From contig CAYUEQ010000003.1 in the NCBI GenBank assembly GCA_964443805.1, forward strand, positions 1-35,062: 35,062 nt of DNA, in the 5' to 3' direction. The position numbers and the translations under genes were made by a program. Positions 26,140 through 28,155 of this stretch are shown here, in pieces (within the stretch, counting starts at the first letter, position 1; each line of letters begins with the position of its first letter). Under the pieces are notes generated by a model. It was not told where the DNA came from. It worked only from the letters and a program-made list of their open reading frames with translations, and searched no databases. The stretch is from an uncultured Muribaculaceae bacterium. GTDB lineage: Bacteria > Bacillota_I > Bacilli_A > RF39 > UBA660.

Positions 26140-28155
26140 TTAGTAATAATTTATTCTGTCTTTTCTTTGCTTGTTATAAAGCATTATTTCTATTGATACT
26201 ATGATAGTGCCTAGAACTATAAAGAAATACACTATCATATCAAATGTTGACATATTTTCAATACTTGTTTTACTTACATCAACACCATCTTTTTCAATTG
26301 GGGTATCAGCATTACATACTTCTTGTGCTTTAACTTTCTGCGTTGTAGGTTTATAACAATAAGAATTATCTAAGTTATAACCTTCAGGACATTCATATCC
26401 TAAGAATTCACTGTTAGTTGTTTTATAACATTTGTTATCTTTTAATGTTGCATTAATATCTTCACAGTAGTATTTATCATCACTCTTAATTGATTTAGAA
26501 CATTTAGTGTTAACTCCACTTCCAGATTTATCATAATCTTTTGGACAAGAGTAATCTATTCTTCCTGGTTTTACAATAACATTAGTATATTGAACATCAT
26601 AACATGACATTGATGAACCACTACCAGATCTTGTATAACCACTTGGACAGTAGTAAGTAGTTTGACCACTAGATGCAGTAGCTTTTGTAGTAGTAGTAAC
26701 TTGACATGACATTGATGAACCACTACCTACTGAAGTTCCTTTAGGACAAGAATAGTTAGTAGAATAATGTCTACATACCATTGATGCTCCACTACCGATT
26801 TGTGTACCAGTCGGACAATAGTAGCTTGTAGAAGTAGTTCTACATTTCATTGTTGAACCACTACCAATTCTTGTAGTACCTGATGGACAACTATATGATG
26901 TAGTAGAAACTACATTTTTATAATGTCTACATAAAGTGCTGTATCTTGTTCCTGATGAACATGTATATTTATATGAAGAAGTTCTTCTATAAACAGTATA
27001 ATTATAATAATCTAAAGCTCCACCGCCACTAGTCATTCCTGTATAAACCATTTTCTCAGTAGTTTTAGTATAAGGACTTTGTGGATATGTAGTCTTTTTA
27101 GTTGTATATACATACCAACTTCCATAAGTGGTTGTTCTAGTAGCGTTAGTTGTTTTGTAACAGCGATTACCATCTCTAGTAGGATAACCACTTGGACATG
27201 ATGTAGTAGTTTTAGCAGTTGCATTTGTATCACTGTTTTTTTGTATTGCAGTAGCTTTTCTATCTGTATATGTTTGTGTTGCTGTAGCTTTTAAAGAATT
27301 AACTTTTGTACATGACATAGATGCGCCACTGCCACTTCTTTTATATCCGCTTGGACAGTTATAAACTGTATTGTTTGTCGATAATCTATTTGCATATAAG
27401 GTTATAAAACATTTAGTATTACCACCACTACCAGATTTACTATAACCTGTTGGACAACCATATTCATTTGAGCCAACTTTAACAGTGGGGTTAATATAAA
27501 CTGTATAGCTTCCGCCTCTGTTTACTTTAGCATCTTCTTTAATTTCTTTTTGTTCAGAATAATTTTTTGTTGCTTTTATTTTTTCCGAACCATTTTTATA
27601 ACAATCCGAACCATTTAACGTATACCCAGTTGGGCATGTTAGTTTACAAGTAGTAATAGGTTTTAATTCTACCTTACAATCTATATCTGTACATACGTTA
27701 TAACATCCGAATGTTTCTACAATAAAATCAGTTTCTCCACTGCACGATAATTGAACCTTTAATTCGTATTCGTTAGTGGAAATTTTTTTCATTTCAGCAA
27801 AACTGTTTGTATTGTCGCAAAAGTTACCAAATTCATCAGTAAATTTTAAAATCATTTTTTTATCTAACATTGTTTCTAATGTCAGTTTGGAAACCTCACC
27901 AATTTCATTTGGTAAACGATCAACAGTAAAGTAAGCTTTAGCAGCATCTTTAATTGTATCTAAGTTTTCTTTAAATGTTTTACTTGGTACTTTTTCAACA
28001 ACAGTAGTTTTATCTTTTGTTTCTTTTGTTTCTTTTTGATCAGGAATTAATTTAGGCACTAACCAAATTAATAATAGTAAAGCTAAGACTACGATTATAG
28101 CCTTAAGACCTAAACCTTTCCAATCAATATTCTTCCATTTTTTTTCTTCGTACAT
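26140..28155 (-). CDS. Doubly anchored (N- and C-terminal TM) envelope protein with about 12 short Cys-Cys loop repeats
   Basis: The N-terminal TM helix is LKAIIVVLALLLLIWLV and the C-terminal one is MIVYFFIVLGTIIVSIEIMLY, followed by NKQRKDR. Repeats include CPTGYTLNGSDC, CPTGYSKSGSGGNTKC, CPSGYKRSGSGASMSC, CPSGTTRIGSGSTMKC, CPTGTQIGSGASMVC, CPKGTSVGSGSSMSC, CPSGYTRSGSGSSMSC, CPKDYDKSGSGVNTKC and CPEGYNLDNSYC. The RBS is GGGGGAA. Confidence 0.8.
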   Translation of the reverse strand: MYEEKKWKNIDWKGLGLKAIIVVLALLLLIWLVPKLIPDQKETKETKDKTTVVEKVPSKTFKENLDTIKDAAKAYFTVDRLPNEIGEVSKLTLETMLDKKMILKFTDEFGNFCDNTNSFAEMKKISTNEYELKVQLSCSGETDFIVETFGCYNVCTDIDCKVELKPITTCKLTCPTGYTLNGSDCYKNGSEKIKATKNYSEQKEIKEDAKVNRGGSYTVYINPTVKVGSNEYGCPTGYSKSGSGGNTKCFITLYANRLSTNNTVYNCPSGYKRSGSGASMSCTKVNSLKATATQTYTDRKATAIQKNSDTNATAKTTTSCPSGYPTRDGNRCYKTTNATRTTTYGSWYVYTTKKTTYPQSPYTKTTEKMVYTGMTSGGGALDYYNYTVYRRTSSYKYTCSSGTRYSTLCRHYKNVVSTTSYSCPSGTTRIGSGSTMKCRTTSTSYYCPTGTQIGSGASMVCRHYSTNYSCPKGTSVGSGSSMSCQVTTTTKATASSGQTTYYCPSGYTRSGSGSSMSCYDVQYTNVIVKPGRIDYSCPKDYDKSGSGVNTKCSKSIKSDDKYYCEDINATLKDNKCYKTTNSEFLGYECPEGYNLDNSYCYKPTTQKVKAQEVCNADTPIEKDGVDVSKTSIENMSTFDMIVYFFIVLGTIIVSIEIMLYNKQRKDRINYY

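Follow-up and report, generated by a model that had tools for sequence, protein, structure and literature searches.

The 35,062-nt window analyzed here (contig CAYUEQ010000003.1; all coordinates refer to this whole stretch of DNA) encodes on its minus strand a 671-aa membrane protein in which a small loop bracketed by two cysteines recurs 12 times. Our preferred reading, held with middling confidence, is that this hairpin protein is a lineage-specific, disulfide-stapled, β-rich envelope or contact protein of a low-GC gut member of the class Bacilli, related to RF39-type metagenome-assembled genomes (MAGs). The architecture, which consists of two anchors, an N-terminal domain (N-domain), a β core, and 12 mini-modules, can be stated with high confidence (Table 1). 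Cysteine accounts for 4.6% of the hairpin protein, compared with 1.0% in the remaining open reading frames (ORFs) of the window. When the protein was scanned against Pfam and NCBIfam, no significant match was found, and its 78 homologues are nameless except for one "hypothetical protein" and two that JGI calls "TraN" (P0028 and P0074).

Table 1. Features of the hairpin gene, its product, and the partner gene (aa, residues of the encoded protein; TM, transmembrane segment; pLDDT, predicted local distance difference test score; pTM, predicted template modeling score; AF2, AlphaFold2)
Feature	Position	Strand	Remarks
Whole coding sequence, Cys-hairpin repeat membrane protein	26140..28155	-	671 aa + stop codon
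Putative Shine-Dalgarno sequence GGGGGA	28164..28169	-	ATG 8 nt downstream
Predicted TM1 / uncleaved signal-anchor	28057..28104	-	aa ~18-33; hydropathy and family consensus
Family-defining N-domain	27706..27984	-	aa 58-150; AF2 pLDDT 91.8, pTM 0.80
Cys-cluster linker GCYNVCTDIDC...C	27637..27705	-	aa 151-173; low model confidence
First hairpin array	27160..27636	-	aa 174-332; loops 174-185, 234-249, 267-282, 320-332
Conserved central β core YGSW...YYNYTVYRR	26962..27159	-	aa 333-398; pLDDT 85-96
Second hairpin array	26356..26961	-	aa 399-600; loops 399-409, 423-438, 447-461, 470-484, 503-518, 537-552, 564-576, 589-600
Juxtamembrane linker with odd Cys-614	26245..26355	-	aa 601-637; family KWS...GW..TGKTR motif absent
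Predicted TM2, clade-specific	26179..26244	-	aa ~638-659; hydropathy; modeled helix 637-670
Basic, predicted cytoplasmic tail YNKQRKDRINYY + stop codon	26140..26178	-	no LPXTG-like motif upstream
Co-oriented upstream partner gene	28178..29806	-	Rho_N/SAP-like N-domain, one TM (ORF aa ~130-150), helical ectodomain

Cys Loops and Predicted Structure

The two-Cys loops comprise seven long loops of the G-S-G type (C-x14/15-C), with the pattern C-P-x-G-[YT]-x-x-x-G-S-G-x-x-x-x-C, and five short loops (C-x9-12-C), of which CPTGYTLNGSDC is an example. They are distributed over two arrays, and in the first of these they are spaced by Thr/Ser/Lys-rich strands. Further cysteines are the N-domain pair Cys-113/Cys-138, a cluster of four at positions 151, 155, 160, and 170, and the odd Cys-614. 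The motif CP.[GD] was observed 10 times in residues 166–615, where 0.12 occurrences are expected, and none of 20,000 shuffles equaled this number. The original prediction for this gene had claimed at least 12 Cys-Cys loops and quoted eight loop peptides. Twelve loops were counted, and all eight peptides are present, at residues 174–185, 267–282, 423–438, 447–461, 470–484, 503–518, 537–552, and 589–600.

Among the copies of the long loop the mean identity is 51% at the amino acid level and 60% at the nucleotide level. With TRF no tandem array was detected in the repeat region; the program found only a short repeat of 9 nt, close to the 5' end. Because the copies have diverged at both levels and do not form a tandem array in the DNA, we conclude that they are old. 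The divergence of the loops at the nucleotide level had also been noted before, and the accompanying suggestion of an old and maintained motif is borne out by the presence of the unit in hundreds of relatives and by the indels between close relatives, which correspond to whole hairpins gained or lost, the cysteines changing in pairs. In most relatives the G-S-G loop occurs as a single copy near the C-terminal end, and in the window clade it occurs in seven copies. The window protein thus carries a clade-specific amplification of a loop type that is usually present once.

The AF2 model of the full protein (mean pLDDT 74.9, pTM 0.31) is all β beyond the N-domain. In every unit a strand ends at the first cysteine and is followed by the C-P-x-G turn, a three-residue strand, a turn, and a long strand that starts from the second cysteine; units of the long type add a one-turn helix at the turn. 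A disulfide-stapled hairpin would be expected to look like this in a model. The most confident part of the model covers residues ~330–440 (pLDDT ~90), and the central core aligns with relatives that are free of hairpins, such as P0136 and P0163. Fold matches of the full-length model in the PDB and in viral libraries, all to elongated β proteins such as the lysenin pore and tail fibers, were rejected as either nonsignificant or geometrically meaningless, with TM-scores (fold similarity) of ≤0.11.

Another Cys-rich ORF, open at its 5' end, is located at positions 3–1580 on the plus strand of the window and contains 29 cysteines in 515 aa. Its product is composed of near-identical repeats of ~85 aa (RTCPARTANVYVDKTAPTC...GCSD..SGCS), which are unlike the hairpin unit, and has a weak match to Big_3_2. 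As this is a second Cys-rich and exported-looking protein, its sequence suggests that the organism exports several Cys-rich proteins or tolerates extracytoplasmic cysteines.

Membrane Topology and C-terminal Attachment

TM segments were assigned by hydropathy, which reveals exactly two hydrophobic segments in the hairpin protein, at residues ~17–33 and ~638–659. The first, TM1, is preceded by a conserved Lys-rich N terminus, MYEEKKWKNIDWK, which places five Lys ahead of the helix. The positions -1 and -3 after the h-region are not occupied by small residues, and from this reading of the sequence the segment is a signal-anchor that would remain uncleaved. The second, TM2, is flanked by K/R in the C-terminal tail. 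Because of the positive-inside rule (Lys before TM1, K/R after TM2), we infer that both termini are cytoplasmic and that the ~600 residues between the helices are outside. All 31 cysteines sit between TM1 and TM2. The order of elements given in the original prediction, a TM helix, a Cys-containing globular domain, a loop array, and a second TM helix with the basic tail NKQRKDRINYY, was recovered from hydropathy and sequence.

The proposed anchoring at both ends applies to the window protein, which has a TM at each end, but it is not a property of the family: a C-terminal TM was found in 6 of 78 relatives and in 9 of 143 family representatives. Most members share a conserved C-terminal motif, Y-x-Y-K-W-S-x4-L-x-G-[WY]-x-x-T-G-K-T-R. 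This terminal KWS motif has been lost from the window clade, where a TM helix stands at the end. Both the motif and a C-terminal TM are present in P0004 and P0054. In P0010, SPKTG is found 13 residues ahead of a hydrophobic segment with a basic tail, which is a sortase-type signal. The C-terminal membrane anchor itself is clade-specific, and across the family the C terminus seems to be attached to the envelope by several alternative means. Given these different attachments (TM helix, SPKTG signal, and terminal motif), tethering at both ends is plausible as a general theme.

Gram-positive sorting signals, too, generically consist of a hydrophobic stretch and a basic tail behind it. The C-terminal segment and tail of the window protein could accordingly be a signal that is cleaved, whether of the sortase type or of a different C-terminal sorting system, so that the mature protein would be linked to the wall or released. 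The SPKTG of P0010 in front of a comparable segment is in line with this explanation, as is the lack of any C-terminal TM in most relatives. However, no LPXTG-, SPXTG-, or NPXTG-like motif is present in the 40 residues before TM2, either in the window protein or in P0001–P0004. The sequence of TM2 and of the tail is conserved inside the window clade, and no sortase gene was found within the window. A cleaved sorting signal is therefore considered improbable.

The Family Is Defined by Its N-domain

In an exhaustive search with a 93-aa profile of the N-domain, 1284 clusters (50% identity) were retrieved at E ≤ 1e-3 and 747 at E ≤ 1e-10. The domain is always positioned at residues ~40–160, right after the N-terminal TM. 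The window protein is a member, as both the N-terminal signal-anchor and the ~93-aa domain (N..Y..P..G..L..C..S..Y..L.C) are present, and the cytoplasmic N terminus with the pattern MYE[ED]..I.WK is conserved family-wide. Of 143 representatives, 77 have no Cys hairpins and 49 have three or more; the number of units per relative ranges from 0 to 22. It is the N-domain that defines the family, with the hairpins as an optional spacer.

The model of the N-domain consists of one helix, a short strand and helix, and a three-stranded sheet, and contains the conserved pair Cys-113/Cys-138. Neither a sequence match nor a fold match to this domain was found in the PDB (Foldseek, best E 0.23). A pilin-like domain was suspected from the combination of helix and sheet, and this candidate was rejected, as there is no pilin among the Foldseek matches and no G|F-x-x-x-E processing motif.

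The total number of cysteines is odd in 62 of 78 and in 111 of 129 family members, which indicates that one cysteine is systematically unpaired. The site of the unpaired cysteine varies by clade and is a three-Cys cluster after the N-domain, a C-terminal cysteine, or, in the window protein, Cys-614.

All named sources of the family are uncultured gut MAGs ("Bacilli," "Mollicutes," "Tenericutes," and "Candidatus Coprovivens"), bar a few wrong bin labels. Coprovivens falls in the GTDB order RF39 (PMC8035907), an uncultivated group with a reduced genome and many auxotrophies (PMC6784871). Among the loci, those of "Candidatus Coprovivens" are the only ones with a documented RF39 assignment. Several loci are titled Muribaculaceae, Phocaeicola vulgatus, or Ruminococcus (L005, L021, L032, L041–L043, L049–L051, L053, L054, and L059); these are most likely mis-binned or mislabeled MAG contigs.

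Relationship of the Hairpin Unit to EGF-like Modules

A set of 586 distinct units with C-x10-C spacing was taken from the family, and its consensus is [T][TS]-Y-[ST]-C-P-x-G-Y-T-L-[NS]-G-x-x-C-x-K-T-x-x-A. The repeat had been described as one that could not be placed in a known family, a statement that can now be revised. Among 75 homologues scanned against Pfam, 29 match cEGF, 12 match EGF_Tme5, and 4 match Sushi. In five relatives that were scanned in detail, the summed cEGF score is 31–48 bits against a gathering score of 26.6. The original prediction had looked to a match with a described family of known function as a refutation; cEGF is a described family and is matched by relatives, but it is a structural one and assigns no function.

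When the unit profile was compared with the PDB, the top match was the 25-aa Manduca stress-response peptide-1 (Protein Data Bank code 6ee9), which has a single disulfide (E 3.2e-4), with the alignment CPSGYVRRGTFC. The GBP/ENF motif C-x2-G-x4-6-G-x1-2-C with one disulfide is found in this match. The core of the insect GBP/ENF peptides is an EGF-like fold with one disulfide and a β-hairpin (PMC6439351). The next matches of the unit profile were Sushi modules, at the level of the motif (VCP, E 4e-4), and the full-length profile matched factor H (E 3e-4). These profile matches, and one to DAF, are weak.

A tblastn search against plasmids identified the F-type TraN of sphingomonads (E 2e-11) as well as a giant Shewanella "Ig-like" protein. 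The former is represented by the TraN of Sphingopyxis plasmid pDB-1 (L065, 5146–8322; 1058 aa), which lies in a genuine tra context. With a hidden Markov model (HMM) of the unit, 20 significant units (346 bits) were found in the N-terminal 750 residues of this protein, and more than 25 in the giant Shewanella protein. The latter, encoded on a Shewanella aestuarii plasmid (L066, 1677–11179), is longer than 3000 aa, and its >25 nearly identical TYSC[SG][AT]GYTLSGS[ST]CSK units follow a 23-aa period. The sphingomonad TraN reaches its length of 1058 aa because ~20 CPxGY hairpin units sit before the canonical TraN domain. Neither unit array is covered by any Pfam or NCBIfam model; in the Sphingopyxis TraN these databases annotate only the C-terminal TraN domain (residues 761–1005), outside the repeat array, and the CPxGY unit itself has no model that describes it in either database.

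By these matches the unit is an extracellular module that is widespread in bacteria, and its relation to the C-terminal hairpin of EGF holds at least for the motif and probably for the fold. The likeness to EGF domains may reflect either homology or convergence. The core C-P-x-G-Y-x-L-x-x-G-x-x-C is common to the unit and cEGF/EGF-like domains (PF12662; the C5–C6 sub-domain of calcium-binding EGF), and in the model the bacterial unit likewise forms a strand-turn-strand hairpin between two cysteines. In contrast to EGF, which has six cysteines and three disulfides per ~40 aa, the bacterial unit has two cysteines per ~23–30 aa, lacks the N-terminal sub-domain and the Ca-binding consensus, and is found in a bacterial host. 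The EGF signature C-x-C-x2-[GP]-[FYW]-x4-8-C is absent from the window units, which have no preceding C-x, and the complete C-x-C-P-x-G-Y occurs in units of some relatives (e.g. P0021 and P0025).

The insect GBP/ENF peptides resemble the unit in that they are a stand-alone, single-disulfide, EGF-like β-hairpin with the motif C-x2-G-Y-x4-G-x-x-C. They are, however, free, secreted animal peptides of 23–25 aa that are released from precursors and act on receptors, whereas the bacterial units are tandem modules in a 671-aa protein with two TMs. Sushi/CCP modules have the strand motif Y-x-C-x-x-G-Y-x-L-x-G in common with the unit, but their ~60 aa contain 4 cysteines together with an invariant Trp, and they offer no counterpart to the second cysteine of the bacterial loop. 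The likeness to Sushi is at motif level only.

The Sphingopyxis TraN (WP_306999122.1) contains ~20 copies of the unit of the family, including a CPNGGTLNG variant, with an equal period. TraN is a disulfide-rich adhesin in which a Cys-flanked hairpin grips the recipient porin (PMC9246713). It is a Cys-rich surface protein that is stabilized by disulfides and acts in cell-cell contact, and the hairpin protein may be likened to it by analogy. The family differs from TraN by the absence of the F_T4SS_TraN C-terminal domain, by its location outside a tra operon, and by its predicted place in the cytoplasmic membrane of a host of the class Bacilli, which is expected to lack an outer membrane.

It is also conceivable that the cysteines are reduced or bind metal in the anoxic gut, with the repeats forming a metal-binding or redox-sensing surface. 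Strict anaerobes often have no disulfide-forming machinery, and Firmicutes tend to exclude cysteine from exported proteins (PMC2823432); the odd cysteine counts (62/78 and 111/129) leave at least one cysteine unpaired. On the other hand, a C-x10-15-C spacing with P-x-G-Y is that of an EGF-type disulfide hairpin and not that of a CxxC metal knuckle. The same unit occurs in the periplasmic or outer-membrane TraN, where the cysteines are predicted to be disulfide-bonded, and the solved peptide 6ee9, which has the same motif, contains a disulfide. In addition, cysteines are gained and lost pairwise with whole units. Reduced or metal-bound cysteines are thus considered very unlikely.

Genomic Context

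The window represents core chromosome and contains a ribosomal-protein operon, rubrerythrin, pheS-pheT, the hairpin gene with its partner in convergent orientation, DUF3048, cdaA, and ybbR. The gene order in L060, which encodes a 71%-identical relative, is as in the window, and at least 13 loci that are more distant also have the gene convergent with pheST. The hairpin proteins of the window and L060 are 71% identical, close to the value for pheT (72%), and at a larger distance the values are 33% and 56%. No phage, defense, or tra genes were found in the examined context. A phage or defense origin of the hairpin protein was rejected, with no PHROG, PADLOC, or phage tblastn match.

The name TraN that JGI gives to P0028 and P0074, together with the tblastn match to sphingomonad TraN (E 2e-11), could be taken to place the hairpin protein among the TraN-type proteins that mobile elements use for conjugation. 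The similarity is limited to the hairpin array, however, and the F_T4SS_TraN domain (PF06986/TIGR02750) was not found in the window protein and is absent from all 75 relatives scanned. The neighbors are the core chromosomal genes pheST, rubrerythrin, DUF3048, cdaA, and ybbR and not tra genes, and a host of the class Bacilli is expected to have no outer membrane. Membership in the TraN family is effectively refuted, and we regard it as extremely improbable.

Elsewhere in the window, positions 20099–20761 on the plus strand encode a 220-aa protein that combines a Big_2 domain with a type I dockerin. A dockerin, which is a cohesin-binding module, is unexpected in a gut member of the class Bacilli with a small genome.

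The Partner Protein

The stop codon of the partner gene lies 22 nt upstream of the ATG of the hairpin gene. The true start of the partner is probably Met-37 (nt 29698), and the listed ORF begins too early, because its first 36 codons specify a hydrophobic stretch that is not conserved in L060 and because Met-37 aligns with the starts of the relatives. The N-domain of the partner matches Rho_N just below the cut-off (E 6.5e-5), and several PHROGs are matched through the same SAP-like helix pair. The gene is also present in L060, L061, and L062.

In 22 loci there is a same-strand gene 12–32 nt upstream of the family gene, and 18 of the 22 products belong to one homologous family. The partners of the relatives consist of a cytoplasmic N-terminal J-domain, one TM, an acidic linker, and a large helical ectodomain, and the J-domain (PF00226) scores above the cut-off in four of seven partners tested. 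J-domain partner genes are found, for example, in L005, L008, L012, L022, and L027, and the HPD motif is retained in L005. Judged by sequence, this architecture appears unusual for bacterial J-proteins and forms a conserved pair with the hairpin gene. Like the membrane-anchored J-domain co-chaperones of the DjlA type, the partner of most relatives is single-pass with a cytoplasmic J-domain, but its J-domain is N-terminal and is followed by a large ectodomain of unknown fold. In the partner from the window, a Rho_N/SAP-like domain replaces the J-domain.

When the ectodomain of the window partner was aligned with the J-domain partners, hhalign gave a probability of 49% (E 1.7e-4), and the clade profile matched L021 with 13 bits; phmmer and HMM comparison of the window partner with the J-domain partners gave no match. 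Homology between the ectodomains is weakly supported by these scores. A disulfide between the odd cysteine of the hairpin protein and the partner was discarded as a possibility, as the ectodomain of the window partner contains no cysteine.

The hairpin-free subfamily is found in another context, in the order PfkB, Smr, the family gene, a bitopic protein of 725–771 aa, and a 139-aa protein (L063, 7001–11109; L064, 7001–11023). In these blocks the partner-like gene is downstream and not upstream. The bitopic protein contains G-Y-rich repeats of ~55 aa (LRAEGLKDGGQKGYDKG.TDGYKGY).

The gene pair can also be read in a different way, in which the hairpin protein is a housekeeping factor of envelope biogenesis or morphogenesis that would form a trans-membrane complex with the partner. 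In most relatives the J-domain would recruit DnaK, which might couple the export or assembly of a large β-rich protein or might signal the envelope state, and the hairpins would be structural filler. The tight conservation of the gene pair and a partner J-domain that passes the Pfam cut-off fit this proposal, as do the position beside pheST kept in at least 13 loci, the moderate evolutionary rate at short range, the conservation of the cytoplasmic N terminus MYE[ED]..I.WK across the family, and the broad presence of the family in one lineage. The Rho_N/SAP-like domain in the window-clade partner, which has no J-domain, implies that coupling to DnaK is not universal. Moreover, the two partner types are only weakly supported as homologues (hhalign probability 49%, E 1.7e-4), the non-loop subfamily occurs in a different gene context, and known morphogenetic domains were not detected. 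We regard a morphogenetic role as a tentative and rather unlikely explanation, though the first to be considered after an envelope or contact protein.

Discussion

In the preferred reading, in which the hairpin protein serves in the envelope or in contact, the uncleaved signal-anchor and the C-terminal stop-transfer helix with its basic tail would put both termini in the cytoplasm and hold an all-β ectodomain of ~600 aa at the surface of the membrane. A single disulfide most likely closes each mini-module, as in the C5–C6 hairpin of EGF and in the insect GBP/ENF peptides. The hairpins would act as rigid, protease-resistant spacer or contact units, the number of which has been freely expanded and contracted in evolution, and the array may form a β stalk or ribbon that is fastened to the membrane at both ends. 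The protein would act together with the product of the gene 22 nt upstream, a single-pass membrane protein, and the likely role of the hairpin protein is in the architecture of the cell surface or in contact with other cells or the host. Disulfide closure, the form of the stalk, and joint action with the partner are inferred here from architecture, model, and gene order. A contact role gains support from the analogy with the hairpin arrays of TraN.

Several observations count against such a protein. None of the Pfam thresholds is reached by the window protein itself, which has no cEGF match even at E ≤ 1. The models of the full-length protein and of the N-domain have no significant structural neighbor in the PDB or BFVD, and nothing therefore points to a specific ligand. 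The short-range evolutionary rate appears to be no faster than that of pheT, which is unlike the signature of a hypervariable adhesin. What links the family to TraN is a shared spacer module and not a shared functional domain. Finally, Firmicutes in general avoid cysteine in exported proteins (PMC2823432), and the habitat is anoxic, which weighs against disulfides.

A broader proposal joins these lines. The CPxGY single-disulfide hairpin would be an undescribed, promiscuous extracellular module of bacteria, a minimal EGF-like unit common to TraN, giant proteobacterial surface proteins, and the present family of Bacilli. In RF39-type gut bacteria with reduced genomes it would decorate a lineage-specific two-gene envelope apparatus, coupled to DnaK via the cytoplasmic J-domain of the partner. 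Through this apparatus these auxotrophs, so far uncultivated, would make the contacts with other cells or the host that they depend on. Taken as a whole, this proposal is speculative and we consider it unlikely.

The repeat belongs to the world of EGF hairpins and also occurs in bacterial surface proteins that are already known; it is therefore not new as a category. Undescribed so far are the protein family and its N-domain, as well as the restriction of the family to uncultured gut Bacilli with reduced genomes and the pairing with a membrane J-domain protein. A family of its own for the hairpin unit would improve the annotation of relatives that are now "hypothetical" or that, owing to the repeat they have in common with TraN, wrongly bear its name. 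Bacilli of the RF39 type are commonly found in the guts of humans and animals; they are uncultured, and their genomes are strongly reduced, with many auxotrophies (PMC6784871). For this group the hairpin protein would be a conserved and abundant-looking envelope component that is specific to it and that runs counter to the avoidance of exported cysteine in Firmicutes. That it is paired with a membrane-anchored J-domain protein is a hint that a cytoplasmic chaperone and a surface structure may be linked.

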